Source: Candidatus Abzuiibacterium crystallinum
GTDB lineage: Bacteria; Omnitrophota; Omnitrophia; Omnitrophales; Abzuiibacteriaceae
Reading direction: 5' to 3'
NCBI GenBank assembly: GCA_002787155.1
Contig: PCVY01000023.1
Coordinates: 6,828 to 70,827, forward strand
DNA length: 64,000 bases
Part shown: positions 17,912-40,700 of the stretch, piece after piece
Layout: every line of letters begins with the position of its first letter
Numbering within the stretch: position 1 is the first letter of the stretch
Notes under the pieces: model-generated
The model's input: the letters and a program-made list of their open reading frames with translations, nothing else
Told to the model about the DNA's origin: nothing
The model's database searches: none
Made by a program: the position numbers and the translations under genes

Positions 17912-19771
17912 ATGACCAGGATGTCCCCGCGTTTTTCTCTGTCTCAAGATCATAAAAAGCTTGGGCCCTTTATCAGTTTCTTCCTCATGGCTTTGGTTTT
18001 GCTGGTATTTTTTCAGGTCCGCACGTTCGAATTCATTAATTACGACGATCAAACCTATGTAGCGGATAATCCCCATATCACAGACGGCCTCACGCCTCAA
18101 GGTGTTGCGTGGGCCTTCAAGGCCGATTTGGTGAGCGATTCGCCAAATGCCGATTATTGGCAGCCGCTCACTTTTATTTCGCGGATGATGGATATCTCGC
18201 TTTTTGATCACCGTCCGAGCGGTCATCATTTGATGAATGTTTGGTTTCATTTGTTTAATACGCTGATTCTTTTTGTCTGGCTGCGCCGCTCAACCGGATC
18301 CATTTGGGCAAGCGGACTTTGCGCCGCTTTATTTGCGGTTCATCCGCTGCAAGTCGAGCCGGTGGCTTGGGTCACTGCACGCAAAGACCTGTTGAGCACT
18401 TGTTTTGCTTTGCTTGCTTTGTGGCAATACGATGGTTATGTTCAGCACCGCCGGAAGGCTGCTTATGTTTTAGTTTTTGTCTTATTTCTGCTCGGCATTT
18501 TTGCCAAACCGATGGTGATGACACTGCCGATTTTGTTCTTGCTGTGCGACTTTTGGCCTTACAAACGTTTTAAACAAGCGACCGCCCGAAACTTGATTGT
18601 TGAGAAAGCGCCTTTTCTTATTTTGTCAATTTTTTCTCTTTTAGTGACACTCAGGACACAGTCCTTTGTTTATCAGCTTGATTCCTGGCTCGTCATGATG
18701 AAGCGTATACCGGCCGCATACGTCTGGTATCTATTTAAATTCTTCTTGCCATTCAACTTGGCTTTGCGAAACGGCCAGCTATTCTATGAACCGCTCATGT
18801 GGCAGTGGTTGTTAGCGGCAGGGTTTTTAGCGGGTTTGTTGACAGCGGCCATCCGGTATCACAAACAAGCGCCTTACGTTTTGTTTGGCGTCCTTTGGTT
18901 TCTCGTGACGCTTTCTTTGGTGACTTTCATGCGTGGTTTTAGCGACCGGTTTATGTATTTACCGATGATTGGACTGATCACAGCTTGTGTTTGGTTGGCT
19001 CATGATTTAATAAACTGTCTGTCATTGTCCGCCAAAGGCGGATCCGTCCTCCGGCGGACGAGTGTTCAAGCGACAGTTGTTTCTCTCGTCATTATTTTCT
19101 TAAGCTTCCTGTCATACCGCCAAACCCGTTACTGGAAAAACAGCATCACTTTATTCGAACATGCGATTGAGGTGACCCAGCACAATTACATTGCGAACAT
19201 CAATTTAGGCAGTGCTTTGGTGGTAGACGAATGGCGCCAAGAAGCCAAACAACCCAAACCGGATGTTCAAGAAACTGCAACGCATGATCCTGTGTTTCTC
19301 AATCAATTGGGATATGCATGGGATGAGAGGGGAGACTACGAAAAAGCCATCCGTTATTACCGTCAAGCTGTCGCGGTCAATCCTGATTATGTGTTTCCAT
19401 ATAATAATTTAGGTGTGACGCTTGGCAAACAAGAAAAATACCAAGAAGCCATTCAACAGTTTCAAAAAGCACTTGCCCTGAATCCTCAATACATTGCAGC
19501 GCGTTACAATTTAGCCAAAGCGTATGCCATTGAAGGTAAAATGGAAGACGCCAAAGCCGCTTACGAAAAAGTACTTTCAATCGATCCGGAACATGTTGAT
19601 GCCTTGACCAATCTAGGACACATCTTCACAAGCGAATCTCAATATGCCCAAGCGATTTCTTACTATGAACGTGCGCTTCGGATTTCTCCGCGTCACGGCA
19701 AAGCCCGCTACGGCCTTGGCGTGGCTGAGAGCCAACTCGCACATCTTACTCATTCCGGATTTGCCGAATAA
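17912..19771 (+). CDS. Polytopic membrane protein with C-terminal TPR repeats (TMTC/PMT-like GT-C glycosyltransferase candidate)
   Basis: 619 aa. The N-terminal ~400 aa has many TM segments, with YDDQTYVADNPHI and HHLMNVWFHLFNTLILFVWL, as in TPR-linked GT-C-like proteins. The C-terminus has at least five TPR units (AIRYYRQAVAVNPDY..., AIQQFQKALALNPQY..., AKAAYEKVLSIDPEH..., AISYYERALRISPRH). Confidence 0.6.
   Translation: MTRMSPRFSLSQDHKKLGPFISFFLMALVLLVFFQVRTFEFINYDDQTYVADNPHITDGLTPQGVAWAFKADLVSDSPNADYWQPLTFISRMMDISLFDHRPSGHHLMNVWFHLFNTLILFVWLRRSTGSIWASGLCAALFAVHPLQVEPVAWVTARKDLLSTCFALLALWQYDGYVQHRRKAAYVLVFVLFLLGIFAKPMVMTLPILFLLCDFWPYKRFKQATARNLIVEKAPFLILSIFSLLVTLRTQSFVYQLDSWLVMMKRIPAAYVWYLFKFFLPFNLALRNGQLFYEPLMWQWLLAAGFLAGLLTAAIRYHKQAPYVLFGVLWFLVTLSLVTFMRGFSDRFMYLPMIGLITACVWLAHDLINCLSLSAKGGSVLRRTSVQATVVSLVIIFLSFLSYRQTRYWKNSITLFEHAIEVTQHNYIANINLGSALVVDEWRQEAKQPKPDVQETATHDPVFLNQLGYAWDERGDYEKAIRYYRQAVAVNPDYVFPYNNLGVTLGKQEKYQEAIQQFQKALALNPQYIAARYNLAKAYAIEGKMEDAKAAYEKVLSIDPEHVDALTNLGHIFTSESQYAQAISYYERALRISPRHGKARYGLGVAESQLAHLTHSGFAE
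19028..19058. repeat. GC-rich motif TCCGCC..GGCGGATCCGTCCTCCGGCGGA, copy in the TPR membrane-protein gene
   Basis: The 22-nt core GGCGGATCCGTCCTCCGGCGGA lies at 19037-19058 and is read as GGSVLRR. The same core occurs three times in the giant gene. Confidence 0.8.
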
Positions 19772-19803
19772 TCATTAATAGGTTCTATTAACATTTCTAA
19801 CCG

Positions 19804-19960
19804 GTCATTCTGAGTCCCCTCTGCCGAAGGCAGTGGAGGACGAAGAATCCAGATAAAAAGAGATCCTTCACGGCGTTTACCCTGAGATGCTTCCCGCCAG
19901 AAGCGAGGCTCGCCAAAGGCGGGGCTTCGCTCAGCATGACATCGAAGGGCTCAGGGTGAC
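19804..19960. mobile_element. MITE-like palindromic element (GTCATTCTGAG ... CTCAGCATGAC type)
   Basis: Terminal inverted repeats: GTCATTCTGAG (19804-19814) versus CTCAGCATGAC (19930-19940), plus a second copy CTCAGGGTGAC (19950-19960). There is an inner GAAGAATCC / GATCCTTC pair. It is intergenic, and the antisense ORF 19797..20006 is its translation artefact. Confidence 0.6.
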
Positions 19961-20114
19961 GCTTTGCCATGGCAAACGTCAACAGAACCCAGTCTTTTCC
20001 CAACAAATTTTTCTCTTTTCGTTAAAGATTTCCGTCTCCTGTCGATATTTATGATAGTACAGGTAAGAGTACTTCCTTGTTCCTGGTTCCTGGTTTTAAA
20101 GAGAGCGACTCTGA

Positions 20115-20366
20115 ATGACATTGATCCGAAAAGGGCAGCTGGCAAAAGAGCTTAACATTCCTTGGCCGACCGTGAAGTATTACACGGCAGTGGGGCTTTT
20201 CCCCGTGGCGGGCAGAACGCCCAATGGTCAGCACTTGTACCACTTACCGCTCATTCGAGAAAAATACGAACGCATCAAAACGCTGAAACGTCAGCGTTTG
20301 ACGATCGGTGAAATTATCGATCGTCTCAAAATGGAGAGTATTGTCCAAGAAACAAGCGCGGTTTAA
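20115..20366 (+). CDS. MerR-family HTH DNA-binding protein
   Basis: 83 aa. [45 protein letters not shown]...[10 protein letters not shown] fits the MerR winged-HTH pattern. Confidence 0.7.
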
Positions 20367-20389
20367 GCGCGCGCGAGAGGAGAACGGCG

Positions 20390-21445
20390 ATGACGATTAT
20401 CACGATTGCAAACCAAAAGGGAGGTTGCGGCAAAACCACCACCACCGTTAATTTGAGTGCCAGCTTGGCCGAGCGCGGTTACAAAGTATTATTAGTTGAT
20501 CTTGATCCGCAGGCGCACGCCACGCTGGGTTTGGGTATTGATCCTTATGAGCTCAAAGAATCCATTTATGAGATTCTCATTCATCCCGACAGGCATATTT
20601 CGGAAGTGATCCGCCGCACCTGTGTGCCTAACCTTTTTATCGCGCCTTCCAACATTCTCTTATCCGGCGCGGATTTGGACCTCAACAATGTGGTGGGACG
20701 CGAAGGAGTTTTAAAAGACCACTTACGCAAGCTCGATCCGTCCTACGAGTTCGTTTTAATTGATTGTTCACCGTCGCTCAATATCGTGACGGTCAATGGG
20801 TTAACGACAGCCAATTATTTGTTGATCCCGGTGCAAGCGCAGTACTATGCCATGGAAGGGATGAAGCAGCTGTTTAATACCGTTGATATTGTGCGCCGGC
20901 ATCTCAATCATGAGTTAAAATTGCTCGGTATTTTACTCACCATGTATGACGGACGGACCAATATCTGCCGCGATGTCGCACGCGGGATTCGCGAGCATTT
21001 TCAAAACAAAGTCTTCCAAACCATGATCAATGTCAATGTCAAAATTACAGAAGCGCCCAGTGCCGGGAAACCCGTCACCATGTACGACCCTTGTTCGATT
21101 GGTGCGCGTGATTATCAACAATTGACAACGGAAGCTTTGGCCATTCTCAACGGACGCCCTTTTGCACGGCCCGAAATTCAGGAAAAAACCAACGGGGCGC
21201 TGCCGGCACCGGCCGTTGAAGTCACTTCCGAGCCCGCCGCGGAAAAAAGCGAAAATGCCGTAGTGCAGGAAGAAGTTCAGACAGAGAAAACGCCTGATCC
21301 ATCACCGGTTTCGCCGGCACCCGAACCCTCTGCCTCAGAGCCTGCTGAAATTGAAACCCAAACATCCAAAGTCCAAGAAACGCCAAAGACTGAAGAAACC
21401 GAATCCGTTGATATTGAAAAAAAAGACGAAGTAAGCGTCGAATAA
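20390..21445 (+). CDS. ParA/MinD-family P-loop ATPase with a long acidic Pro/Glu-rich C-terminal tail
   Basis: It has the deviant Walker [18 protein letters not shown], then [12 protein letters not shown], then VLIDCSPSL. The last ~100 aa are low-complexity P/E/T/S. Confidence 0.85.
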
Positions 21446-21454
21446 ATTATTCAC

Positions 21455-23320
21455 ATGGCTAAGAAACCGACAGGGCTCAACAAGAAAGTCTCATCCATTT
21501 TTTCGGGCATTCCTTCATTCGGTGAAGAGAAGGAATCATCGTCACCTGAAGTCAAGCCGGAGGCGCAGGCAGCTGCTTCACTGAGCGGCGCCAAACCTGC
21601 TCAATTGCCACGGCCCATGGAACCAGGCCATCCCATACCAAAGTCAGAATTAAAATTTAATCTTGGCTCTCTTTTTCAAGTGCAGCCTCGTCCCCGGTTA
21701 ATTTTTGATATCGGGTCCAGCAACGTCAAGGCTGTCTTAATGAAACCGGGCTTGCGGTCATGGACCATACAAGATGCGCGTGACAGTGAGTTTACCGTTG
21801 ATCATCAAGGTGTTCGGCGGGCAGCGGGGGATGACATGGTGCTGGCATTAAAAGAAATTGCGGCGGCGCTTGATCCCAAACATGAAGCGTCGGTAGGGAT
21901 GGTGATTGGCAGCGCGAACTCATTTTTCAAAGTGATCCCGGCACCCGAGGGGCCAGAGAACACGTGGCGCGAAGAAATCGTTTGGCAGTTAGCGGAAACA
22001 GCTCCCTTTTCTTTGGAAGAAGCCGAGGTGGAATGGGTGAAAGTGCCTCGGTTGAACTTGCCTCATATCAAAGGTGTGCCGCTGCTCGCTGCTGCGGTTG
22101 AACGTTTTGAATTAGACCGATGGATGACTATTTTTCGGAAAGCCGGTTTGCATCTGGAGCTGATTATCCCTGCACCGCTTGCGGTTGAATCAATGCTCAC
22201 CCGTTATCGCCAGCCGGCAGCCGAATCAATGTTGATTGCAGATTTTGGCGCCGAACACACGCAGTTTTACGTTTTTGTGAAGGGGCAGTTTGTACTCATG
22301 AGAGATATTTCGTTCGGAACAGAACTCGTGATTCGCTCTTTAATCGGACCAATTCAAATTGATAATGAACGAGTTGAAATCGGGTTTCAGGAAGCCAGCA
22401 CCTTGGTTCGGGAATATCAATTATTTGCCGGAATCGGGCAGTATGATTCTGCGCAGCCCAAGCGTTCCCAGTTGGCGGCCCGTGTTCGCCCGCACATGGA
22501 AAAATTGGTCAACGAAATCAAGCGGTCTATCACATATTACCAGACAGAATTTCATGGCCCCGAAGTTTCTAATGTTTTCATTATTGGCGGCGGCGCCGGT
22601 TTAGAGGGGATCGATCAATTTTTATCGCATGAACTCAATGCGTCGGTTTCACGCGTTGACTTGGTCAAAGATTTTACTTGGCACTTGGATCCGCATCTAT
22701 TGAAACACACCCCGTCACTTCGCAGGACTTTCGGGGTGGTGCTGGGCGGCGCATATGTTAAATCACCTCGTATTAATTTTGCTGATTGGCAGGACCGATG
22801 GGCCTCCGTTGCCGCCCAAATCAAACAATGGTCGAAAGTAGCCATGCTGGGTGTCATGGTTGTCGCCGGCATAGGCTGGTCGTCTTTGACTGTGCAGCAG
22901 ACATTGCTTGATCGTGAATTGAAGGCTGTGCAGCAGAAAATTGATCAAGCGGGTCCCGTGACGGCTAAATTAACCGAATTAGAAACGTTAGGGCAGCAAA
23001 TCGAATTACGCCAGTCGCTTCTTGCGCAGGCTTTTGGTTATGAGCCTTATTGGGGAGGTATATTGAGGGAATTGAGTCATTTGATTCCCCGGGAACTGGT
23101 TTTAGATACCTTCAGTGCGGCAGAGAACAAGGGAGTGCCCGAAATCATTTTAACCGGGCATGTTCAAGTTTCGTCCAGACCCAGTGACATGGTGGTATCG
23201 GAATTGCTGCATGTTCTAAACGAATCACCCTTTTTTTCTTCGGCCCAGTTGATTAAGCGAACTCAGCAGGAAGAAGAAACAACCAAAACGACTTTTAGTG
23301 TCAAAGCAGATTTAGCCTAA
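21455..23320 (+). CDS. PilM-PilN fusion (actin-like pilus assembly ATPase fused to a TM/coiled-coil PilN-like module; GspL-like topology)
   Basis: 621 aa. It has a low-complexity N-terminus, then a PilM-like region (LIFDIGSSNVKAVLM ... IADFGAEHTQFYVF ... IIGGGAGLEGI), then a TM helix (VAMLGVMVVAGIGWSSL) and a coiled coil. Confidence 0.7.
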   Translation: MAKKPTGLNKKVSSIFSGIPSFGEEKESSSPEVKPEAQAAASLSGAKPAQLPRPMEPGHPIPKSELKFNLGSLFQVQPRPRLIFDIGSSNVKAVLMKPGLRSWTIQDARDSEFTVDHQGVRRAAGDDMVLALKEIAAALDPKHEASVGMVIGSANSFFKVIPAPEGPENTWREEIVWQLAETAPFSLEEAEVEWVKVPRLNLPHIKGVPLLAAAVERFELDRWMTIFRKAGLHLELIIPAPLAVESMLTRYRQPAAESMLIADFGAEHTQFYVFVKGQFVLMRDISFGTELVIRSLIGPIQIDNERVEIGFQEASTLVREYQLFAGIGQYDSAQPKRSQLAARVRPHMEKLVNEIKRSITYYQTEFHGPEVSNVFIIGGGAGLEGIDQFLSHELNASVSRVDLVKDFTWHLDPHLLKHTPSLRRTFGVVLGGAYVKSPRINFADWQDRWASVAAQIKQWSKVAMLGVMVVAGIGWSSLTVQQTLLDRELKAVQQKIDQAGPVTAKLTELETLGQQIELRQSLLAQAFGYEPYWGGILRELSHLIPRELVLDTFSAAENKGVPEIILTGHVQVSSRPSDMVVSELLHVLNESPFFSSAQLIKRTQQEEETTKTTFSVKADLA

Positions 23321-23334
23321 ACACAGGACAACAG

Positions 23335-23946
23335 ATGGCGGTCAGACCCGAATCGCAAAAAATCGTTTTACAATGGGCTGTCAAAGAGAAAGTGGTATTG
23401 CACTTGTCTGTTTTGGCAGGGTTAATTGTTTTTGCAGCTTTCGCCGTGATAGGTCCGCGGATAGCTGATTTAAACAAACAAAAAGCAAAGTTAAAGGAGT
23501 TTAATTCTTTTTTACTGGGTACACAAGAAGCCGCGAAACGGCTGAGAAATCTAGAACAATTGCTCGCAGATCAGAGGCAGGCATTAAAAGAGCTCAACGC
23601 ACAAACGCTGAAACGAACTTCCATTGCTGCTATGCTGCAGAATTTTACGGCCGCTTCCGAATCACTGCCAATGACCATTTTGGACATCAGACCGGATGAG
23701 GCACCCGCGGTCAATGATCCAAAGGCCGTCGTGCCGGCCTGGAAAGAAAACGGCTTTGATCAAAAGTTATTGAATATTCATTTTCAATGCCGGTACCAAA
23801 CGCTGGGTCGTTTACTGGAACGCTTAGAAGAAACACCTTTAATTTATCATGTCACTAAACTTGAAATGGGGACCAAGGATTTAATCGCACCTAATTTGGA
23901 CATTTCATTAACGTTAGCTTCTTATGTGGAAAATTCACCTCACTAA
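23335..23946 (+). CDS. PilO-like pilus assembly protein
   Basis: 203 aa. It has one N-terminal TM helix, a coiled coil (KQKAKLKEFN...LEQLLADQRQALKELN) and a C-terminal ferredoxin-like region. The position after pilMN supports the call. Confidence 0.55.
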   Translation: MAVRPESQKIVLQWAVKEKVVLHLSVLAGLIVFAAFAVIGPRIADLNKQKAKLKEFNSFLLGTQEAAKRLRNLEQLLADQRQALKELNAQTLKRTSIAAMLQNFTAASESLPMTILDIRPDEAPAVNDPKAVVPAWKENGFDQKLLNIHFQCRYQTLGRLLERLEETPLIYHVTKLEMGTKDLIAPNLDISLTLASYVENSPH

Positions 23947-23955
23947 GCAGATACC

Positions 23956-24489
23956 ATGGCACTCAGCAAAAAAGATAAAATTCAATTAGGCATCATCGTG
24001 ATGATGGTCGGACTGATTATTTTTAAATTGCCGGACTTCGTGCGGTTCGTGAGCGGTACCACACAAAAAGCCTCCTCAGGCGTTCCAAATGCCTTACCGG
24101 CACTGCCCGAGAATGCGCCCGATTTTTTGAAGGCCATGGTCATGCAAGTACGCAGCGGCACCGCTCATCCTCATTTCAATTTAACGCAAGAGCGGGCTCT
24201 TAGAGAACAGCAAGCGCTTCTCAAAGAACAATCCTGGGGAAGAGATCCGTTTTTTTCGATCCCCATTGATGAATCGCGGTCCAAAAAAATCGAAGTCACC
24301 GACAGCTCCGAATTGGTTCTCAAAGCGATCTCATTAAAAGGCACAACCGCCATGGCCATTATTAACCAAACGGTCATTCATGTCGGTGATGAAATTTTGG
24401 GAATGACTGTCAAATCCATTGAGCGCGGTCGTGTGATTTTAGCGAACAGCGAACGCGAACGTGTTTTACGTTTTGGAGGCATGACATGA
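23956..24489 (+). CDS. PilP/GspC-like small periplasmic protein
   Basis: 177 aa. It has an N-terminal TM helix and a C-terminal beta-rich segment (LKAISLKGTTAMAIINQTVIHVGDEILGMTVKSIERGRVIL), as in PilP / GspC HR domains. It overlaps the secretin gene by 4 nt. Confidence 0.45.
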   Translation: MALSKKDKIQLGIIVMMVGLIIFKLPDFVRFVSGTTQKASSGVPNALPALPENAPDFLKAMVMQVRSGTAHPHFNLTQERALREQQALLKEQSWGRDPFFSIPIDESRSKKIEVTDSSELVLKAISLKGTTAMAIINQTVIHVGDEILGMTVKSIERGRVILANSERERVLRFGGMT

Positions 24490-26147
24490 CAAAACCAATC
24501 CAGTTTGGTTTTGTTTTTCTTATGGTGTTGGCATTAACCGTCTCGCAGGCACAGGCAGACTACTCGCCGTCAACCGTTCAAAGCGATGATTCATTGGTGA
24601 CGCTGGATGTTCAGCAAACTGATATCAGAAGCGTGCTTAATCTGCTTGCCGAGCAGTACGACTTGAATATGGTGATTGATGATGACGTGACCGGCCTGAT
24701 CACCATTCGTTTGCAGGATGTCTCACTGCACGGAGCGTTACAGGCCATTTTATTATCGCACGGGTACGATTATGAAACCGTGGATAACATTGTCCGGATC
24801 GCTCCGACCGAAGTCCTGGCAGGCGAAAGAGTCATTCGGCAGGAACGGCAGGGGATTGAACCGCTTGTTTCTGAGGTGATTACGCTGCAATATTTAGACG
24901 CCAGCGACATACGCCCAGCCATTGAGGCGCTTCTCTCAGAGCGCGGTTCCATCAGCGTGGTTGAACGCAAGAACTTTACCGGGTTTCAGTTTGGTGCGCA
25001 GGCTGTTCAAACCGGATCAAGCACTTCCGGCGCAGCTGGTGAAGGATTAATTCGTGATAGACGCAAAGGAGATTCTACTGCACGGTCACGATTTTTATTG
25101 GTGACCGATACGCGCAGCCATGTGGAACGCATCAAGAGCGTGATCCGCAATGTTGATGTCAGGCCGCCGCAAATCCTGATTGATGCCAAAATCTTAGAGG
25201 TAGAAACAGACACCTTAGAGGATTTGGGTATTGAGTTTGATTCGCAAGTGACGCCGCCGACAGAAAATGATCATAACAGCGTGTTAAATTTTGATTTTAA
25301 TCAGGGCGTGAGCGGCAAAACTTTTCCCACGTCAAGTGATCAAGGGCTGAATGTTCAGTTTCAAAAAATCATCGGTGAGAATTTTCAAGCGGTTTTACAT
25401 GCGCTGCTGCAGGATGAGCGAACACGAACGCTTTCCAGCCCGCGTATTTTGGTTTTAGACGGACAAGAAGCTGCCATTTTGGTAGGGGAACAGTTCCCGA
25501 TTTTCGAAAGCACCGTTTCCGATCAAGGAACGGCCACCGAATCACTTTCTTTTTTCCAACCGATCGGTATTAGTTTGCAAGTGATTCCGCAAATTACCGC
25601 TGACAATAATATCCAGATGATCATTCACCCGACCGTCAGCTCAGTCGGTAATTTTGTGACGGGCAGCACCGGGCTCACTCAGCCCCGTATTAACATTCGC
25701 GAAGCTGACACTCAAGTGCTCGTGAAGAACAGCGAAACGCTTGTGATCGGCGGGCTGCTCGAAGACATTACAGTCGAATCTGAATTTAAGGTGCCAATTT
25801 TAGGGTATATTCCTTATCTGGGAAAACTATTTACACGTACCCGGACCGATGTGGATCAAAGAAATCTCATTGTTTTTATTACGCCTCAAATCATCAGCCC
25901 GGATGTTGGGTTGAGTGACAAACGGGCCAAGGAGGCATTCCTGGGCATTGTGGATTCGGATCGTTACGGTTTCTTGCATGAAAGGCGTGAGAATGTTAAA
26001 ACACATATCCAAGAAGGTGTGCGTGCTTTTCATTTAGGTGATTACGAAGTGGCCCGGCAGGCATTTGAACGCGTTCTGCGCTTGGATGATCAAAATCAAA
26101 CCGCCCGTGAGTACCTCAATAAGATCTACAACGCCCTCAGAAATTGA
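24486..26147 (+). CDS. Secretin (PilQ/GspD family) with a C-terminal TPR-like extension
   Basis: 553 aa. It has a signal peptide (FVFLMVLALTVSQAQA), N-domains, and a secretin core: TRTLSSPRILVLDGQEAAILVG...LVIGGLLED...KVPILGYIPYLGKLFTRTRTDVDQRNLIVFITPQII. Confidence 0.9.
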   Translation: MTKPIQFGFVFLMVLALTVSQAQADYSPSTVQSDDSLVTLDVQQTDIRSVLNLLAEQYDLNMVIDDDVTGLITIRLQDVSLHGALQAILLSHGYDYETVDNIVRIAPTEVLAGERVIRQERQGIEPLVSEVITLQYLDASDIRPAIEALLSERGSISVVERKNFTGFQFGAQAVQTGSSTSGAAGEGLIRDRRKGDSTARSRFLLVTDTRSHVERIKSVIRNVDVRPPQILIDAKILEVETDTLEDLGIEFDSQVTPPTENDHNSVLNFDFNQGVSGKTFPTSSDQGLNVQFQKIIGENFQAVLHALLQDERTRTLSSPRILVLDGQEAAILVGEQFPIFESTVSDQGTATESLSFFQPIGISLQVIPQITADNNIQMIIHPTVSSVGNFVTGSTGLTQPRINIREADTQVLVKNSETLVIGGLLEDITVESEFKVPILGYIPYLGKLFTRTRTDVDQRNLIVFITPQIISPDVGLSDKRAKEAFLGIVDSDRYGFLHERRENVKTHIQEGVRAFHLGDYEVARQAFERVLRLDDQNQTAREYLNKIYNALRN

Positions 26148-26264
26148 TGATTTTTTACCCCCATCTCATCAGCCCTGATTTATAATAGAAATTAGCGCCG
26201 TGCGCGAGTTTCTCCCTTTCCCCTCAAATAAGGGGGAGAGGAAATTCGGAATGTCAAAAAATAG

Positions 26265-27749
26265 ATGATCTTATTACGAAAGATTATTTTTTACCTTTTT
26301 GTCGTCATTTACATTGTCGTTTGCCCCATGGTCATCATGTACGCGATTGGCTACATCTATCGCCCGGGCGCTCGGCAGGAACTTGTTCAGACCGGATTGA
26401 TTTACCTTTCTACGGTACCGCCGGGTGCTGCGGTGTATTTAGAGGGAAAACGTTTTGCTCAGAAAACACCCGCCATGATTCGTGATTTGTTCCCGGGGCA
26501 ATACCAAGTCACGATGTCATTGAAAGGGTATGAAGACTGGTCACAGTCCGTTCCGATTACGGCAGAGCAAGCTTCTGTGTTGGATCACGTGCTTTTCCAT
26601 CCTAAAAGATGGCCGATTCAAACATTATCAAGCGGCTCTTTTCACAATTTTCAAGTGATCCAAAATTTCCATGTGATTCCCAAATCAGACCTCTTTGTGC
26701 TTGAAACGGCTGATCGTCAGGTGGGCGGCCTTTACCTTTATGACACACAATCAAAGGAATTGAAACCGCTGATCGGAAGTGATTCGCCTTGGCGTTCTCA
26801 AAGTATTGAACATCTTTACGCCGTGAAAGAAAGCTCGCAATTAATTTTGTCTGCCAAAGATAAGGGAGATCTAATTTTTTTGTCTGTCAATTTAGATGAC
26901 AAACCGCCGGCCATTCGTGAAATAACGTCTTTGTTCCAAGAGGAGAAACCCAAATACTTATGGTGGAGTGCTGATAACAAGGAGAATCTATTTGTTTACC
27001 GGAATCGGCAGTTACATCGTTTGAACTTAAGGCGTTATGAAGTCAATCCTGAATTTGCCGAAGGCACACGCGGATTTGGCGTGATGAAAGACAGCGCTTA
27101 CATTTTGCGTTCAGACGGCATTTTTATGAAGCGTTCCATTAACGGGCAAGACGAAAAAATTCTCTTAAAAGATCAAGACCTCATGCATTCACTATTCGGA
27201 GACGAAGGATTTTTCAAGATTTATGCCTATCCGTCGGATTTGTTTCTTTTTTGGGGAGACAAAGGACAATTATTGACCAACAAATTACCTTATCAATTGG
27301 TCAGGCAAGGTGTGAAGGGTTTCGCTTATGACGTCAAGAAAGAACTGCTGCTGATTTGGCGGCGCCAAGACTTAGGCATCGTTGATTTTGCCACGCGGCC
27401 TTTTGAGCGTGATGATGTTTTTGAACCCGCTCCGCGGCTCAAGTGGGTCTATCATGGCGGTGATCAGATTAATCAAGCTTTCCTGGTCTATGAGGGATCC
27501 GCGGTGATATTTCGTGACGGCAATCAGGTGCTTTTGCTTGATTTAGAAACGTTTGAAGAACCTCATTTGAGCCCGGTGGTTGAAGTGTTCCCAAGGTCCG
27601 ATATCTATTATTCAGATGATTCCGGATTTTTGTACTATTTAGATCAGGCCAAGGGTCACTTCATGTCGCTTCAAGTGGTTCCCAAGGAGTCAGTGATCCA
27701 GTTTCCGGAATGGAAAGAAACTTTTAAAAGAAGAAAGAAGCTATCATGA
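26265..27749 (+). CDS. Membrane-anchored PEGA-domain protein with a large C-terminal beta-rich domain
   Basis: 494 aa. It has an N-terminal TM helix, a PEGA-like segment (YLSTVPPGAAVYLEGKRFAQKTPAMIRDLFPGQYQVTMSLKGYEDW), and a repetitive beta-strand-like remainder. Confidence 0.55.
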   Translation: MILLRKIIFYLFVVIYIVVCPMVIMYAIGYIYRPGARQELVQTGLIYLSTVPPGAAVYLEGKRFAQKTPAMIRDLFPGQYQVTMSLKGYEDWSQSVPITAEQASVLDHVLFHPKRWPIQTLSSGSFHNFQVIQNFHVIPKSDLFVLETADRQVGGLYLYDTQSKELKPLIGSDSPWRSQSIEHLYAVKESSQLILSAKDKGDLIFLSVNLDDKPPAIREITSLFQEEKPKYLWWSADNKENLFVYRNRQLHRLNLRRYEVNPEFAEGTRGFGVMKDSAYILRSDGIFMKRSINGQDEKILLKDQDLMHSLFGDEGFFKIYAYPSDLFLFWGDKGQLLTNKLPYQLVRQGVKGFAYDVKKELLLIWRRQDLGIVDFATRPFERDDVFEPAPRLKWVYHGGDQINQAFLVYEGSAVIFRDGNQVLLLDLETFEEPHLSPVVEVFPRSDIYYSDDSGFLYYLDQAKGHFMSLQVVPKESVIQFPEWKETFKRRKKLS

Positions 27750-29380: not shown

Positions 29381-29416
29381 TTTGATGAGACGGTCTGAGC
29401 GGTATGAGAGGGGCGC

Positions 29417-30812: not shown

Positions 30813-30822
30813 AGCAGATTTC

Positions 30823-31425: not shown

Positions 31426-31444
31426 ACAGTTCTTCACTATTCCG

Positions 31445-31526
31445 TATATATATGAGTCATCGGGGAATCAATCCCCGCTGGCTCAGGGTGAGAGGTCTGG
31501 AAACTCCCAGACCCCTCATATATATA
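31445..31526. repeat. 82-nt nested palindrome (outer 12-bp AT stem plus two GC hairpins) downstream of the LysE-like gene and upstream of the giant gene
   Basis: Outer stem: TATATATATGAG (31445-31456) / CTCATATATATA (31515-31526). Hairpin 1: CGGGGA-atcaa-TCCCCG (31461-31477). Hairpin 2: GGTCTGG-aaactc-CCAGACC (31494-31513). Confidence 0.6.
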
Positions 31527-31701
31527 AAATATGACCTAATATATGACTATTATAAAATAGAATTATATTATATTAATGTAAGTTGTTTATATATAATGAC
31601 TTACATATCATATTTTTTTCATTTCTATCCTTGTAATTTACCGGATATGCGGTAGACTTTCTAAAGTGCTTTAGTAAGTCAGTTCGCATGGTAAATAATG
31701 C

Positions 31702-34700
31702 ATGTTCATCCCTAAAAATATCCAGAGAGCCATAGCCTTTTTTCTTGCCATTTCATTCTCTTTATCGAATGGCCCAACGCTTTTACTTGCCGAAACTTAT
31801 CCGGGAAGCAGCCTGCCATACCATGCGAGCTCTGTGAATCCAAATGCTATTTTGGATTCCCTTAAGCTTCCCGGTGAGTTAGGCATTGTTCAAGAGGTTT
31901 ATAGCGCGGTACCAGGTACAACGGTGCCAGGTTCACAGAACCCGGCACCGGCTGTACCTGGTACCGGAATTGGTTTCAAAGTTAATCAACTGGTCATCCT
32001 CGTGCAAAATGCCCACGCCAATTATGATTCAGAGTCAAACGTCCGCAAAATCATCCAGTTCTTCCAAGAGCACTATCAATTAGGACTTGTTTTACTGGAA
32101 GGCGGGGAAGGCAAGTTAGACCCGCTTTTTTTTAAATCTTTTCCCGATGGCAAAATAAAAGAAAAACTGCTGGATCAATATTTAAAACATGGGGATTTAC
32201 AAGGCGGTGAAGCAGCAGCCATTTTGAATCATTCAAACAACCCAACGAGTTATTGGGGCATTGAAGATGAAACTTTGTACCAGCAAAACAAAGCGGCCTT
32301 CTTAAAAGCCATTGTTCAAACGGATCAAATCTTAAAACAGCTTACTCAAAAAGAAGCCGCACTCGAGGAAAACATTGCTTCATTGCCTGAATCATCACAA
32401 ACCTTTTACAAGGCTTGGCAGGCTTTTCATGCGGATGAGATGAATTTGCTGGAATACGTGAAAACGTTAGCTGAGCATACATCGGGTACCGGTTCTGTTG
32501 ACAGTGTCATTCCCGCTCGTCTTTGGCGGGAATCTACTGTGATCGGTGCTCTTGTGCGCTCATTTCCCGAACTTGCCAAATTGTTGGAAGTAGAGAAAGG
32601 CGAGCAAGCCCTCCAAAAAAGCGAAATTGACATGACCGTCAACCAACTGTTGAAAGAATTTCAATCAACTGCGCTGCCGGCGCTGTCAGTCGAATCACAG
32701 AAAGAATGGGGCCAGCGGATCCAGGATTATCAAACCGGCCGGCTCGGCGTGGGTTTTTTGATCAAACAGCTTGAAAGTTTTCTTACCATTCCCGATGTTC
32801 TAAAACCTGCTATTCAGCACGCCCAAACCATTTCTTCCGTCCGGGGAACAGAAATATTCCATGAACTTGAGCATTTAGAGAATGCTGTTCGCGATCAATT
32901 GCCGGGGCGTGAGCGCCTTCATCAAGTTAACGAACTGCATCTCTTGAAACGGTTTGCGCGTTTAGAAATTACACATGAAGAGTGGAAGGTCATTGCGAGC
33001 GCAGCGAAGCAATCTCAAGACCAAGGATTGCTTCGGTCATTTCATTCCCTCGCAATGACAGAAATGCTTAAGAACCATTTCACTTTCTACCAACTCGCAC
33101 TCAAGCGTGACGGCATTTTATCCGGCCGCATTCTCGAAATCATGCGCCGTGAATCTCAAAAAGTTTCGCTCGTGGTGACCGGCGGTTTTCATGAAAGCGG
33201 TATCAAAGAGCGCCTCCGGGCAAACGGCACCGCTTATGTTTTGATTTCTCCTGCGATTCAGGAAGTCGGATCAAACGAGGCTTACCTCAATGCCATGCAC
33301 GACAAGCGTTCTTTTATGAAATATTTTCAAGGCAGTTATTGGGATGCTTTGGCAAAGGATTACATGCAGCAATCGTCAGCGGCTGCGGGTCCGCAGGAAG
33401 AAAAGTTTATTTTTAAGCAGTGGCGCGATCAACTCATCCAAAACACGCTGCAGGAGGGCAGAATCACGCAGGCAACGCGTTACACGCGCTATTTGGATTC
33501 ATTTTTACAAACCGAGGGAAAACCAGCGGATGACAAAGTTGGCAGAAAAACTCAATTAGAAGGTGCTTTCGAAAGTTTCCTTTCAACTTATTTTAAACAG
33601 CATCAAGCTGATTTGAATGCCAAGCTTGATCATTTTGCGGCAGGTTTCAAAAATATGCTCACACAGGGCACCTTCACGCAAGGGGCGGTCGAAGCCTTGT
33701 TGCGTCAAACACAAGTCCTGCAAACGGCTCAACTCGCACCGGATCTCGCTTTGATTCCGGCCTGGAACCAATTTCATTTAAGTGAAGCAACGATTGAAAC
33801 ACTGCCTGATATCAACCAACCTCTTTGGCTCGAGCACAAGCAAAAATCCGAACTCAGGAGTGAAGAGGTAGACTCTGATTATTGGTATGCTTATGGTGAG
33901 GAATTCCTTATTTTGATGGAAGAGGTGGGGTACCGGATAGATGAAACTGACCTTGAAGGTGATATAACTCTGGAGGTAGAGACAGTATCAGACGATCGCT
34001 TTCCTAAAGATTTTAGCAAATTAGCTAAAAGTGTTCCCGAATCGGACCTCACACGTTTACGCGACACATATATCCATATTCTAAAGAATGCCATTGGGAA
34101 AAGTCGAACACTTGAGGAGATAGTTGAAGGCTTGAGCACTTTAATATTAAGGCAGGCAGGAATTCGATTAAATGACAGAAAATTAATTGAAGCCATTACT
34201 GATATTTTACTAACCTATAAAGAAAAAGGGGTGACGGGACCCACCCTGCAGCTGCGCCACGTTTATCTATTTCCAAGATATGGTGATGTGAATGAAATCA
34301 TTCAATTACTGGCCAACCATCGAGGGAAACGCGGAACCTTGAGCCAAACCCAACGGCAACTGATTGCACAGCAACTCGAAAACATGAAAGAGCAATGGCA
34401 AGCAAATTACGAAAGAGCTCAAGCCGAAAAAACCGAAGAACCTAAGGTTGATGGTCAACCCAAAACCGGTGAATCGCTTTGGCTGGAGGGTCAACCAAAA
34501 CCCGAACTCAGAAACGCAAAAGATTATACTCAGATGAGTGTCAAAGAATTGCTTGTAGAACTTCAATCAACTCGAAGTCAAAGTAGTCAAGTCAATTTTA
34601 AAATACTTAGGATTACCAGCGAGCTGGAGCAGCGCTCAGAGAAGATGTTAGACAGCGAGATAGTGGCGACTATCAATGCTTTACTTTCTGCATTGATGTT

Positions 34701-37700
34701 AATTGAGCCATCCAGCGAGGATGCGCTTCACGCTCACACTTCATTGAGGGCGGTGTTAGAACGATTGATAGAGGAAGTCTCTCAAGATGAGCTTGTTTCT
34801 ATAATCCCTGTTTTACATACAACACTTGAACAAATTCACGGAACGAGCAGTCAAGCCAATATGGCCAGAGTAACCATTACACGAATATTGGAAAAACTCT
34901 CGAAAAAGGTTCCTCTCCCTGCGTTGGCCAGTATTCAGAATGCCTTACTTTTAGCGCTCAAATTGACCGAAGGTTCAGATATTGATACAAGTCACACCAG
35001 AAATAACATAGCTCATTGCTTGGCTTTGGTCACACTGCGTTATTATCAGGTTATTCATTTGACTGATAATAGGTTACCCTTCATCAGTTTAGAAAAACTT
35101 TTGTCAATGGTAAGTTCCGGTCCGGATCGTATTTCACTTTTTCCTATTTATGGGGATCTTGAAGTGATTGGTCAAATCCTGCAATCTCAAGACCAGACAA
35201 ACATGATACAACAACTGAATGCTTACCGGGAACAATTGATGGCACAGTATCAAAGGGAACAGAGATCAGGGATCAGGGGACAGGGAACAGGGAACAGCTT
35301 GCCGGATCATGATCCGCTTTGGACAGCGGGGGTTGCCGGCGGCGTGAATGCGGGAGCAGGAGCTGACCGAGCAGAATTAAGAAACAAAAACTATTCCCAA
35401 ATGACAGCAGACGAACTGCTGCAAGCGCTCAAGTCTGTTCAAGGGACGAATGAAGCGTCGACGGATACTAGACGAGCTCTTTCAAATGCGCTGAATGCTG
35501 CTTTCAGAAGAATGAATCAAGAAGAACTACCCGCCATTTTTCAGGACTCGCTCGCCGCGATCAAAGAAATTGGTGAAAGTGATGAGCGCACTCAAGCTAG
35601 AGATTGGATTGCCATGCCACTCTTTGCCCTCATCCAAAAGATTGACGAGGATCAGCTTGCTTTCGTCTTTGAAAATCTGATAGCTGTTCTAAGAGAAATA
35701 AAAGGATCGAGTCATGCGGCGATTCAAGTACGATTCAGCATCATACAAAATTTAATCTTGATTGTGCACCGCCGTCATCATCGATCTTACACAAGCCCCG
35801 GGGATAAACTCGCTCAGGCGCTTCACGTCCTTTTCTCAGCTGCTTCTTCAAAAGTCTGGGTTTTTGAAACGTATGGCAGTTTACATGCGTTGGATCAAAT
35901 CTTTGAATCCAAAGATGACAAAACAATCATTGCAAAACTGAGCGCTTACAGGGAACAATTAATCGCACTGTCTCTAAGGGAAGAAGCGCCGCGGGTCAAG
36001 GGTCAAGAGCAGCAAGACACGGGCGGCGGATCAGGGGACACGGATCAAAATGATTCCATCTGGGCAGCCACTGTCTTGGGGCCTGCGAATGTGAGCGCCT
36101 CTATCAAAATTCATTCATCACGGTCTGAATTACGCATGAAACGCCGTTTGGATCCTTTAGATCAACTCTTGAATGATCTTAAGTCACTCAAAGGTTCGGG
36201 TGATACCACAAACGGCATCAGGGCAGATCTTGCGGATGCCCTGACAACATTGGGCAGAAAATTAACCGAATCTCAATTATTTCTTATCGTTGATCCCATC
36301 ATTACACAATTAGAACAAATTGAAGGATCACGATATACGGCCAATCGGGCAAAACTGGCCATTACCTCATTCATTAATATGGCAGCATCGCGCCTTTCGC
36401 CTACTCAACTGGGCGGTTTGGTTAAGCCATTATTTAACCAAATTGTGTTCAAACGTGAACTGGAAGAATTGACTTCAAACATACCAGTTTCATTTGGCGA
36501 CAGTTTGCTGGAAGTTGTCAGAGAAATCGATCAAACCCAATTACAGGAAGTGGCACGTTTACTGTTTGATTATTTAACAAATCTTCCGGATGACTTGGAA
36601 TACACAAATCTAAGTCTACGTTCTATTTGCCGGGCTTTGACAATGGTATTTAAACGTATCGATACCTTCCCATGGTCGGAAGCAGTTGCTGCGTTTAAAA
36701 CATTACACAGAAACACTGAGCAGACCCGAACATTCTACCCAGCCTTTCCATGGATTTCAGATGTTTTAGCCATGGCGCTCCTCAGAATGCACCAGATTGA
36801 AATTGAAAAAGGGAGGGACAGCCTTTTTTCTGCGCTTTCCCGTCTTTTGGAGTTTCATAAGGACGACACGGTTCTTTTTCTGCGTCATGGAGATTTTAAC
36901 GAAGTTAATTCCATCCTCCAGTCTCACGCGGATCGTTCTACCAAAACCGCGCAACTCAATCATTACCGCGAACAATTACTGGCCTTACATCAAAGGGAAC
37001 AGGGAGCAGGGAGCAGGGAACAGGGAACTCCGCCACACAGCGTCGGGCGGATCCGTCCTCCGGCGGAAGGGATCAGGTCACAGGATACGGATCACGAACT
37101 CTGGCTCAGCGGACCGGTGGGGGCAGGAGCAGTTGGTGTTGGCGCAGCAGTGTTGAATACCAAATCGGAGCTCCGAACTCATGGAGATGATGAATATGAT
37201 GTCATGGGTTTTGAGTCAAAATATTGGAAAATGGATTTAAACGAGTTACTCGATGAACTTTGGTTCATCTTATGGTTCAACGAAGAAGGGTGGGGAAAAA
37301 GTTTTGATAGGAACACCATTATTGAAATTACCGATCATATTCAAAGGAAAAGTAAGGAAGCCGATCAAGATGAACTTGTTCCTGCCGCCCGGCGGCTTTT
37401 TGATGCTTTGGAAAAAACGGTGAAGTATTTCAATCGTGACACGGCGGCACCGCACTTGGCGGTTGCCAGAGCGCTTGCGGCCGTTCATTGGAAGATTCAT
37501 GGTTTCAATACTTCGGAATGGTCAAACGAGTTATTTTTGACGCTCGAAGATATTTTTGTAATTGCCATCGGTGAGAAATCACTTTTCTTAAGTTACAGCA
37601 GCCCGGCTGCCATTAAGCAAATTCTTGAGCTCAAAGATCAAAATGCCATGATTTACCAACTCAAAGCGCTGCGCGAACAAATTCTTGCCGCCTATCAAAG

Positions 37701-40700
37701 AGAACAGGGAACAGGGGACTCCGCCGCACATCGTCGGGCGGATCCGTCCTCCGGCGGAAGGGAGCAGGAACCGCGGGACACGGGATCACATGAGCCTCTT
37801 TGGACTGCAGGGGTAGGCGCCGGCGTTCTGCTATCGGCCAAATCAGAATTACGCGTGCAATTTTTTCAGATTGCTTTAACAAAGCTCGTTGACTTTGCAA
37901 GACAAAACGCATCTCTTTTCTTTCGATATGTCATCAACCGTCAGAAGGTTGTTGAGCGGGATGATGACGATTATGAAAAAATGAGTACCGATGAACTATT
38001 AGACGACCTTCAATTTATTCACCTGGCTTATGCTTTTCGCCATGTCCCGCCTCAGCGCAGGTGGGATATTTCACTTTCGCTTGGGTGGCGCGTGCAAAAA
38101 ATGACAAAACCCGAACTTCTCGACTTTTCAAGAAAACTTCTCACTATCTTAACAACCACAAAAGGTTCTAGTGAAAACGCACATCAAATAAGAAGTGCCG
38201 CTGCCGGAGTCTTTAAGGAAGTGGTTAGAATTATTCCAGATACCGAATTATTAGCTATCTTTAAGGCGCTTTTTTCAGCATTAAAAATAACGCACCAGTC
38301 GCTTAGCGTTGCCTTTAGTCACGCCGCCAGGATTGAAGAGCGTGCAATCACAGACACTTTTGAAATAATACGTAAAAGAATGCCTAAAGCTGATTTTTCG
38401 CAAGTGGTTGACGAATACTTGGCAGTGTTGGAAGAAATAAAGAATCGAAAATTTCTTTTCTGGGAAAAAACAATACAACACCAAACTCTCCATTTAATGG
38501 GGGAAGCAGTCTATTCCTTTCCGGAAGCTCAACTGAGGCGAACGGCTAAAGAATTGATCGCTATTTTACGAGCTCTCAAGGACCAGGGCGGAAATGTGAA
38601 CGAAATTCGAATTTTATTACTTTATGTTTTTCGGAACATCGTCGAGCGTTTACCCGAAGCTGATCTGGGCGGCTATGTGACTGAATTACTCTCAACGTTT
38701 GATGCTATCAAAGGATCGAACGAACACGCTGGAGAAGCAAAAGGAGACATAGGTCATATTTTGTCGAAAGCAGCTGAACGGATGCCGCCCTCAGAACTAC
38801 CTCATTTTGCGGATGAAGCATTGATCAGGCTAGAGTCAACGCCAAATCGGGGAAATCAAGCTTATCAGACAACGCGAGCGATGGCGGAGGCTCTTTGGGG
38901 TTTTGCAAAGGCAGTTGATCCCGAAAAGGCGGATCCGCAAAAGATGTCTAAAATCATGAATCTACTTCTTGAAAAATTAAAGCTGATCAAAGGAAAAGGT
39001 GACAATGAGGAGTGGGCCAAAATACATATCTTGCTCGCTTTAGGAGCCATAGCTAAAAAAATCCCACATCAAGAGCTTCCCGGGCTTTCCAATGCAATTC
39101 TTTCAGAGTTAACGCATTATGAGTTTAATGACGGACTCAAAGGCCGTTTAATTGATGTGCTGATAGCAATTGCAGACAGCATTGATCTTGCTGAGCTGCC
39201 AAAGATATCAAACGAGCTTCTGGATGTTTTAAAAGAGATGGGAGAATTAAATGATGACGAAGATGGAGGGTATCAAACACTCGTCACTATAGCTGTATTT
39301 TTTGAACAGATCACACCCAAAATCTCAGAAACAGAACTCCCTCGTATTTCAAAAGCATTTCTCACTGCACTCGCCGCCATCAAAGGATCTAGTTACAATC
39401 TAGACCGTGTGAGAAGGTTTGTCGGAGACGTGCTGGCTTTGATATCACTGAGGATCAATCACTTACCATTGGATAATAAGCCATTAATTGAACAGCTTCA
39501 AAAGTTCTTCTCGCTTGCTCCGGCTAGTCATTCACTTTTTCCGATGTACGGCGACCTAAATGAAATTGGGCATATTTTAAAGCTTGAAGATCACAAGCAA
39601 GTAATAGCCCAACTCAATGCCTACCAGGCACAATTACTGGCACGGTATCAAAGGGAACAGGGAACTCCGCCACACAGCGTCGGGCGGATCCGTCCTCCGG
39701 CGGAAGGGAACAGGGAACAGGGGACGGGGATCAGGTCACAAGACACGGATCACGATCTCTGGCTCAGCGGACCGGTAGGGGCGGGTATCCGGGCAGAATT
39801 AAGAAACAAAGACTATTCCAAAATGACGATCGATGAATTGTTACAGGCACTTCAAATGGGAAGGTCTGATCAAGAAGCTCAGGAACTTAAAATTGGAATT
39901 GCCAAAGTTTTAAAAGAATCAGCTAAAACCATGCAACCAACGGAACTTCAGCATCTTTCTAATAGGCTCCTTTTACTGCTAGAGGCAGCACCGGCAAAGG
40001 GGAGGGCGGGCCGGCAAACCATTCAAGCAGTTGCAGATATTTATCAAGTGATTGCGATGAAAATTGACCCTGCCGAATTGCCTAAGATTTTAGAGGCACT
40101 GCTTACCGCCTCAAAACTACCGCTCAAATATGACGTTGACGGCAGAGATGCTAAAAGGTTCATTACGATTGCATTGACAAAAGTTGCTGAACGAATCCCA
40201 GAAGAAAAACTTCCTACCATATTAAATTATGCGCTTCTTGAATTAAGCCATTATGATTTGGATGATCAATTAACATACAGTTTAATTTTTGTGCTCGATG
40301 CAGTTGCTAACCGAATCCAACCAACCGAACTGCCAAGAATTTTGCATGCCTTACTCGATAAGCTTAAAACAATCAAATCATTAGATGATAAAGATGAAGA
40401 GGATCTCATTTGGCAGGTAGTGATGATAGCAGCATTTACCTTTAAATCGATTGCCGCCAGAATGAGCGCAACGGAACTACCGGCCATTTCGAAAAGACTT
40501 CTCGAAATACGCTCGCTTGCCAAAAGAGATAGCACTCAGGCGGAAAAAACAAGAGACGCTCTCTTAGCGCCTTTTCCTGCCATTGCTGCCCGTATAGACA
40601 AAAAAGAATTACCTAACTTATTTGATCAATTTGTTGACATTTTGAAAAATACACACCGAACAGACGCATCGCCGGGATCAAGTTCTAACATGAGATTGCG

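Follow-up and report, generated by a model that had tools for sequence, protein, structure and literature searches.

A miniature twin-hairpin repeat, probably inserted in frame and passively translated, in two unrelated genes of an Omnitrophota bacterium

Our study concerns a 22-nucleotide sequence, GGCGGATCCGTCCTCCGGCGGA, that is carried by two unrelated genes in a 64,000-nucleotide stretch of DNA from the uncultivated Omnitrophota bacterium Candidatus Abzuiibacterium crystallinum (contig PCVY01000023.1, positions 6,828 to 70,827), referred to here as the window. The first gene (17912-19771, plus strand) encodes a 619-residue membrane protein with C-terminal TPR repeats, which is related to protein O-mannosyltransferase-like proteins. 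The second (31699-64000, plus strand) is an open reading frame (ORF) of more than 10,767 codons that continues past the end of the window and encodes a midasin/dynein-like multi-AAA_5 protein; giant genes of this kind have been reported for Omnitrophota. The 22-mer has four exact matches in the window, all on the plus strand (19037-19058, 37046-37067, 37737-37758 and 39683-39704), and no additional window match at up to three mismatches; 100 dinucleotide-preserving shuffles of the window contain none. TCCGCC lies 5' of all four, with a loop of 3 nt at 19028 and loops of 11 nt in the giant ORF, and both the coordinates and this upstream arm agree with an earlier reading made from the DNA letters alone (the sequence-only reading). 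Translation in the host frame gives GGSVLRR in the TPR gene (codon offset 0), as that reading had it. Its claim that the giant-gene copies all read RIRPPAE holds for those at 37046 and 39683 (offset 1) and fails for the one at 37737 (offset 2), which encodes RADPSSGG in the same open frame. The 22-mer is thus translated in three frames overall, where two had been proposed, and in two frames inside the giant ORF alone. The frames differ within this ORF because 5, 3 and 2 heptamer units of 7 nt each precede its three copies.

The 22-mer forms the 3' two-thirds of a larger unit, in which two abutting GC-rich hairpins with nearly equal stems lie on one strand: TCCGCC-(2-11 nt)-GGCGGA is followed directly by TCCGTC-CTCC-GGCGGA, and the 22-mer comprises the 3' arm of hairpin 1 and the whole of hairpin 2. 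The unit is 30-39 nt long overall; its TPR-gene copy measures 31 nt and its giant-gene copies 39 nt each. Copy 1 (19028-19058, plus strand) is the short-loop form, with AAA as the loop of hairpin 1; it scores 57.9 bits with our covariance model R1 and encodes the peptide (S)AKGGSVLRR in a loop between two predicted membrane helices. The three copies in the giant ORF, all on the plus strand, are of the long-loop form and follow runs of the heptamer AGGGAAC. Copy 2 (37029-37067) has the loop ACACAGCGTCG, follows five units and encodes PPHSVGRIRPPAE; copy 3 (37720-37758) has the loop GCACATCGTCG, with two differences from copies 2 and 4, follows three units and encodes SAAHRRADPSSGG in the third frame; copy 4 (39666-39704) is the same as copy 2 in sequence and follows two units. 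The peptides predicted to span the insert junctions include LSAKGGSVLRR and SATNASADPSSGGEGK. The sequence-only reading had recognized the upstream hairpin and overlooked the second hairpin, the third frame, the true boundaries of the element and the heptamer-array target.

RNA folding predicts two 6-bp GC stems, with energies of -16.9 kcal/mol for the 31-nt form and -18.3 kcal/mol for a 36-nt form. Near-variants of the unit were detected in the flanks of related loci by a Hamming scan and with the covariance model; since this model already holds the twin-hairpin structure, the pair counts lean towards it. The arms used to count compensatory changes were parsed from the true sequences, and the model-search alignment, which mixes the strands of a near-palindromic element, was excluded. 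The variants keep both stems through compensated changes: TCAGCC/GGCTGA in hairpin 2, and CCCGCC/GGCGGG or CCAGCC/GGCTGG in hairpin 1. At locus L010 both hairpins are altered together, and a further double-compensated variant combines TTCGCC/GGCGAA with TGCGCC/GGCGCA. The hairpin TCCGCC-loop-GGCGGA noticed in the sequence-only reading is therefore real and is maintained in the variants, four of which carry double compensatory changes that disrupt the alternative outer/inner pairing of arm 1 with arm 4. The loop of hairpin 1 ranges from 2 to 11 nt across copies, and that of hairpin 2 may be CTCC, CTTC, CTTT, TCA or TTT. The core palindrome of the same reading, CGGATCCG, is present in the window copies, where it arises as a by-product of the junction at which the 3' arm of hairpin 1 meets the 5' arm of hairpin 2, and is gone from the GGCGGG-TCCGCC, GGCTGG-TCCGTC and GGCGAA-TGCGCC variants. 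The free loop length, together with the lost palindrome, argues that the unit is recognized as a hairpin in single-stranded nucleic acid, not in the form of a double-stranded site of fixed spacing. The idea that the core mimics the 16S rRNA 3' end was set aside, as the CCUCC loop is not retained in the variants; GGAUCCGUCCUCC only loosely, and probably coincidentally, resembles the 16S 3' terminus, GGAUCACCUCC. The anatomy also appears to fit none of CRISPR repeats, integron attC sites, dif/Xer sites or ribozymes.

A comparison of occupied and empty sites identifies the unit as an insertion. The giant ORF contains no fewer than 11 paralogous linkers with the pattern ...QLNAYREQL.AQYQ-R(E/D)Q-(AGGGAAC)n-GTCACAAGACACGGATCAC..., three of which hold the 39-nt unit exactly between heptamer units. 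The target of copy 2 is the array directly 5' of it (36994-37028, plus strand; delineated with Tandem Repeats Finder and by inspection of the sequence), and similar arrays lie beside copy 3 (37702-37719) and on both sides of copy 4 (39652-39665 and 39705-39735). The linker at 39.6 kb, which is occupied by copy 4, and its paralogue at 41.9 kb, whose unoccupied array (41953-41997, plus strand) provides the empty-site reference, differ by a single 39-nt gap running from TCCGCC to GGCGGA, with no target-site duplication; the 17 nt upstream are identical but for one, and about 80 nt downstream are identical. In the TPR protein a segment of about 13 residues (LSLSAKGGSVLRR) between two hydrophobic segments is missing from 54 of 59 aligned homologues. 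An identical TPR protein, insert included, is encoded on 12 independently assembled contigs, which excludes an assembly error.

A further case is provided by the essential enzyme IspH, where a 39-nt copy at locus L053 lies between the codons for R-F and E-G-K-R. Its closest homologue (92% identical in protein and 85% in DNA) reads R-Y/E-G-K-R and lacks exactly these 39 nt; as in the giant-ORF linker, there is no target duplication. The short form of this loop is found in about 100 of 120 close homologues, so that most relatives of both IspH and the TPR protein lack the insert, a comparison with motif-free orthologues that the sequence-only reading had proposed. Different lineages carry, at this one site, the 39-nt unit, a 36-nt unit, two 30-nt variants (with CCCGCC-TCT-GGCGGG as hairpin 2), a decayed copy (locus L085), a single-hairpin form and a complex nested insert, a pattern which indicates either that a hot spot was hit more than once or that the element was precisely lost several times. 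The IspH/LytB loop in question, which follows 'FETCERF', is hypervariable in length among Omnitrophota-like homologues, with extra residues in about 24 of 120 (L083-L088, P0126-P0245); several of these residues are encoded by recognizable or decayed hairpin units, making the loop of this essential enzyme a recurrent hot spot. At L087 (301-1632) an insert of 33 residues is built from other hairpins (CCCCACCAC-ACT-GGGGTGGTGGGG and TTCGCC-GCA-GGCGGA), and several hairpin families thus use the same IspH site.

The motif is not confined to the window. Its absence elsewhere, together with conservation of the respective peptides in orthologues, had been named in the sequence-only reading as a sign of coincidence; the exact 22-mer occurs at 25 loci in species-representative genomes and at 53 metagenome loci. 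The record titles of the genome loci name Omnitrophota, Planctomycetia, Melainabacteria, Elusimicrobia, Nomurabacteria and Magasanikbacteria, the last two belonging to the candidate phyla radiation (CPR); these are titles of metagenome-assembled genomes (MAGs), whose labels can be wrong. The Omnitrophota matches include eight contigs of a single MAG, the Planctomycetia MAG ERP125453_co1_485 is another carrier, and one Actinomycetota match lacks the upstream arm and may be due to chance. The exact-core loci share a common architecture and have flanks that are unrelated beyond a few bases, and their G+C content ranges from 0.33 to 0.68, so that they come from truly different genomes. The identity of the nucleotides across three frames, unrelated genes and several labelled phyla bears out the proposal that the conserved unit is a nucleic acid and not a protein motif. 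Viral contigs gave no match to either the exact or a degenerate pattern, and BLAST searches of plasmids and phages gave none or matches at chance level (E ~0.5). In Rfam the whole window has nothing at the gathering threshold, and the surroundings of the copies have nothing relevant at E<=1. The 22-mer string was not found in the searchable literature.

Approximately 26 of the 61 copies that were classified lie within ORFs, including all four in the window and those in dnaK, ispH and mfd; these intragenic counts include non-independent paralogues and orthologues. The unit has a length divisible by three in 22 of the 26 intragenic copies compared with 12 of the 35 intergenic ones (Fisher p=1e-4), and three of the four intragenic exceptions lie near the 5' end of their frame, where they may be upstream of the true start. 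All intragenic copies are open in the host frame, and about 15 of 21 long-loop intragenic copies are read in the frame that gives S-A-T-K-x-A-D-P-S-S-G-G (p=4e-4). In open frames of 150 codons or more, sense copies outnumber antisense ones by 25 to 6, the six being in short, doubtful frames; relative to their neighbours, intergenic copies are oriented 12 to 18. This tabulation of genic and intergenic position and reading frame, which had been suggested in advance, thus shows a sense, a multiple-of-three and a one-frame bias inside genes. Among the hosts are DnaK, with the copy in its disordered C-terminal tail, an aspartate/ornithine carbamoyltransferase, with the copy in its first codons, IspH, Mfd, a phosphorylase, a multihaem cytochrome c and a PMT_2 glycosyltransferase; the insert lies mostly outside the cores of Pfam domains. 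On our analysis, this intragenic pattern is what would be expected of insertion at the DNA level that is filtered by tolerance. Translational bypassing or splicing of the insert is an unnecessary assumption, since the frames are preserved.

The insertions occupy sites of several kinds. These include the centres of short palindromes (between TTC and GAA in IspH), the loops of other hairpins (tcccgc...gcggga and ctcccctc...gaggggag), hairpins of the unit's own family (L048, L064) and (AGGGAAC)n arrays. In 21% of copies the flanks are complementary over at least 5 bp, a figure that falls to 8.5% under a shuffle null. The upstream flank is rich in pyrimidines, a weak preference in which position -2 is T in 29 of 48 copies and position -1 is Y in 38 of 48, and there is a preference for RARG downstream. 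On either side of the TPR copy the sequence (CATTG...CGAG) is similar to that around short-loop copies in Omnitrophica GWA2_52_8 (CATTT...CGGG).

Other repeats accompany the unit in the same genomes. A second hairpin family, CCTGCC(TGC)...GGCAGG, is nested in or lies beside twin hairpins at L004 (4297-4353), L060 (1030-1105), L075 (553-621), L009 (~546-590), L064, L005 and L020. Further hairpin families occur in composite repeat clusters: GATTCCCGC...GCGGGAATGAC, CTCCCCTC...GAGGGGAG and ATCCCCGAA.GCTTT.ATCGGGGAT. In Omnitrophica GWA2_52_8 and its relatives (L003, L004, L006, L012, L014, L061 and L082) the short-loop element lies within a longer repeat bounded by GGTTCTGTTGA and TCAACAGA(A)CC, and from its sequence this longer unit looks like a miniature inverted-repeat transposable element (MITE), with the twin hairpin as a putative passenger.

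We propose that the 22-mer is probably the core of a miniature, non-autonomous dispersed repeat, a twin hairpin that is inserted in frame and passively translated. Insertion adds a unit with exact ends to the DNA and duplicates no target site; coding and non-coding DNA are both hit, often at the centres of hairpins or palindromes, in G-rich heptamer arrays or in other copies. Of the options offered by the sequence-only reading, a mini-insertion fits best, given the clean presence and absence in a paralogous linker and in orthologous IspH. Within genes, selection would spare only sense-strand copies that leave the frame intact and sit in loops, linkers or termini, and these would simply be translated as a short hydrophilic peptide. 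The same DNA would thus appear in three frames because surviving copies are merely translated, and for the two host proteins the window copies presumably serve no function. As the likeliest mechanism we see a trans-acting enzyme, or a repair or replication process, that recognizes the hairpins in single-stranded DNA. One example would be an enzyme of the HUH/Y1 type, like those of IS200/IS605 and REP elements; another would be microhomology-guided templated copying at exposed single strands. The targets can expose single strands, and this, with same-strand hairpins, exact ends and the absence of duplication, resembles the logic of IS200/IS605 and REP/RAYT systems. The three copies in the giant gene may have spread further by recombination among near-identical linkers.

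Several observations weigh against this interpretation. The Y-rich upstream and RARG downstream preferences fall short of a sharply conserved target tetranucleotide of the IS200/IS605 type, and the element has no space for the guide sequences of that type. A crude HUH/Y-motif screen of all loci revealed no mobilizing gene, and the 150 neighbouring ORFs are housekeeping genes with no enrichment of transposase, Y1 or reverse-transcriptase genes. The TPR copy, at 31 nt, is not divisible by three, so that a few flanking bases must belong to the inserted unit. The sense bias is explained neither by stop codons nor by obviously worse antisense peptides, as the reverse complement is open in all frames, and it could be a sign of a role at the RNA level. 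The window holds only four copies in 64 kb, three of which may stem from one event, and the instances as a whole are partly non-independent, being paralogues, orthologues or copies of one composite repeat. Because an exact string was used to scan the collections, the invariance of the core is partly so by construction. Finally, identity of the core across several labelled phyla is hard to square with a purely neutral selfish repeat unless its horizontal spread is recent. Within the window itself no RAYT/Y1 transposase gene was found.

A bolder proposal, which we put forward as tentative, is that the unit represents an undescribed, ultra-small (30-39 nt) family whose 22-nt core is identical in groundwater and sediment MAGs labelled as at least five phyla, and which combines precise, duplication-free insertion and repeated same-site hits in housekeeping genes with a mechanism beyond the known transposon classes. 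Such a family might be moved by a shared or horizontally mobile enzyme acting on hairpins in single-stranded DNA, or by an RNA- or single-stranded-DNA-templated process.

The evidence on structure and orientation also bears on a different view, in which the twin hairpin is a host-beneficial signal in RNA or single-stranded DNA (a protein-binding site, an element of RNA stability or processing, or a translational pause), with the core kept by function and the coding copies recruited. The preservation of stems by compensatory changes agrees with this, as do the intragenic sense bias, for which neither stop codons nor the peptides offer a cause, and the identity of the core across labelled phyla and in orthologous IspH genes that share only about 75% identity in their flanks. 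We nonetheless consider a structured signal unlikely: Rfam is negative even in permissive mode, intergenic copies show no orientation bias, the element is missing from most orthologues of every host gene examined, and its placement in the termini, linkers and disordered tails of unrelated genes looks like tolerance. Decayed copies (L085) and the variable loop of hairpin 2 speak against it too, and the sense bias has a simpler candidate cause, as antisense copies would put the Shine-Dalgarno-like GGAGGA into mRNAs. The structured-RNA option of the sequence-only reading gains from the sense bias and is weakened by the unbiased intergenic copies, the negative Rfam search and the placement of the copies. 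Slightly less probable again is the formation of the hairpins in place, without a dedicated element, by template switching, hairpin cleavage with microhomology repair, or gene conversion, as a by-product of the metabolism of non-B DNA. This would account for sites at palindrome centres, hairpin loops and G-quadruplex-prone heptamer arrays, for the lack of a target duplication and of a linked transposase, and for several hairpin variants, one of them a single hairpin, at one IspH site; the flanks that the TPR copy shares with GWA2_52_8 look as if donor flank had been copied along. De novo formation cannot, however, give the same 22-39 nt in genomes of 33-68% G+C and several labelled phyla, so a donor copy must be transferred; the boundaries of the 39-nt unit are identical in unrelated targets, and junction microhomologies measure 2-4 nt at most.

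The remaining explanations are much less probable than these. A double-stranded recognition site, whether for restriction-modification (GGATCC or CGGATCCG), a site-specific recombinase or a dimeric regulator, is suggested by the GGATCC and the inverted arms TCCGCC/GGCGGA in the core. We regard it as very improbable, as the spacing of the arms varies from 2 to 11 nt, which is irrelevant to a hairpin and incompatible with a fixed dimer site, the copies are scattered within housekeeping genes, and the BamHI-like junction palindrome is lost where the hairpins are kept; the restriction-modification and regulator options of the earlier reading likewise go unsupported. Coincidence or artefact, in the form of chance identity, intragenic duplication alone, or assembly or chimera error, could draw on the paralogous linkers of one gene, which hold three of the four copies in the window; these copies possibly go back to one event. 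The empty shuffles, the 12 independent contigs with the TPR insert and more than 60 distinct loci elsewhere with the same architecture reduce its probability to a negligible level.

The dispersed twin hairpin shares traits with several known systems. The Nostocaceae repeats SDR4-6, from a set of eight SDR families, are reportedly non-coding and near-identical, 21-27 nt long, and of unknown mobilization mechanism, and SDRs are said to lie within tandem heptameric repeats, hairpins or MITEs, and one another. The present unit is like the SDRs in being tens of nucleotides long, near-identical, dispersed, and nested in hairpins, heptamer repeats and other copies of itself; in this comparison of descriptions it differs as a twin hairpin of 30-39 nt that occurs in Omnitrophota and other labelled groups. 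Among species-representative genomes there are no cyanobacterial matches save one Melainabacteria MAG, and SDRs have been reported only from Nostocaceae (PMC5861425). REPs are extragenic, usually form inverted pairs (REPINs), border a RAYT gene and bear a 5' tetranucleotide that is conserved; the ends of IS200/IS605 elements carry similar hairpins, in direct orientation and on one strand. REP/REPIN-RAYT and IS200/IS605-derived miniature elements have short GC-rich palindromes that are recognized as hairpins (PMC3116915). The unit described here resembles REPs and REPINs in its short GC-rich, hairpin-forming palindrome, its lack of target duplication and its non-autonomous spread, but many copies are intragenic, the hairpins are in direct tandem with no inverted doublets seen, and no conserved tetranucleotide is apparent. 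With the IS200/IS605 miniatures it shares similar hairpins in direct orientation on one strand and the lack of a target-site duplication.

Insertion into coding sequence has precedents as well. In yeast mitochondria, GC clusters or 'byp' elements are GC-rich hairpin units of 30-55 nt that spread within the genome and enter coding sequence; byps are skipped by translational bypassing, a step of which the twin hairpin has no need, as 22/26 intragenic copies have a length divisible by three. Uptake sequences (USS/DUS) of Pasteurellaceae and Neisseriaceae, which are 9-12 nt long, lineage-specific, present in thousands of copies and not insertions, are likewise short exact motifs within genes, read in several frames and biased towards peptides that can be tolerated, but the present unit is a discrete inserted hairpin. 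Rickettsia palindromic elements (RPEs) are in-frame palindromic repeats that are translated within unrelated housekeeping proteins and filtered by tolerance (PMC10969869). The in-frame insertion with preservation and translation of the ORF is the same here; RPEs, however, measure about 100-150 bp, are limited to Rickettsia and encode one peptide per family, compared with 30-39 nt, three peptides and several labelled phyla for the twin hairpin. Classical MITEs (about 50-500 bp) have terminal inverted repeats and a target duplication, in contrast to a unit of 30-39 nt without duplication at the two pairs of empty and occupied sites compared. As defining features of REPs, MITEs and RPEs are missing, we regard the unit as a miniature palindromic dispersed repeat outside any named family.

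The giant ORF has further repeats of its own. At least 11 arrays of AGGGAAC, AGGGATC or AGGGGAC, all in frame on the sense strand, lie each within a conserved linker; they include those at 35254-35297, 36994-37028, 39705-39735, 40933-40998, 41953-41997, 56200-56262, 57538-57581, 58471-58536, 61444-61488 and 62887-62949. The gain or loss of one 7-nt unit would shift the reading frame of the giant ORF. G3N4 repeats (GGGNATC) have been shown to form G-quadruplexes (PMC4692102), and by analogy the arrays of the giant ORF are predicted to be of this G-quadruplex-prone type; they could act as sites of phase variation or ribosome stalling within the gene. A tandem repeat of 132 nt (44 codons) forms three other arrays in the ORF (41121-41686, 56895-57219 and 63227-63761), with 72-83% matches between copies. 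Positions 39705-39785 and 41967-42047, in two linkers 2.3 kb apart, are identical over about 80 nt, which suggests recent gene conversion, duplication or recombination among the linkers; with this perfect identity, the three copies in the giant gene are perhaps not independent insertions.

The gene content of the window is that of an ordinary chromosome, with genes for an ammonium transporter, trehalose synthesis, a chloride channel, a type IV pilus/type II secretion system (T2SS) and phospholipid synthesis. Between positions 1 and 31500 there are 26 ORFs of at least 150 codons, all on the plus strand except two short ones, and the type IV pilus/T2SS cluster around the TPR gene comprises GspE/PilB, PilC, PilM, a secretin and PilZ. 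A cyanobacterial origin, which the heptamer repeats had led us to expect, is rejected: the HIP1 motif is not enriched in the window, and the source is an Omnitrophota.

The interest of the element centres on how it spreads and on the identity of its core across phyla. For the annotation of the window, GGSVLRR, RIRPPAE and ADPSSGG would be passengers and not motifs. If our proposal is correct, a repeat far below transposon size is being scattered through the genes of uncultivated phyla (Omnitrophota, Planctomycetota, CPR and others), where it would inflate and diversify loops and linkers in essential proteins, among them DnaK, IspH and Mfd. Identical strings in unrelated genes could then mislead assembly, binning, homology searches and the inference of horizontal transfer. 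Should the cross-phylum proposal also hold, this would be the smallest cross-phylum mobile element known. The repeat would point to an undescribed route of mobilization that acts on hairpins or single-stranded DNA, and the IspH hot spot and the clean pairs of empty and occupied sites offer concrete substrates for finding its machinery.

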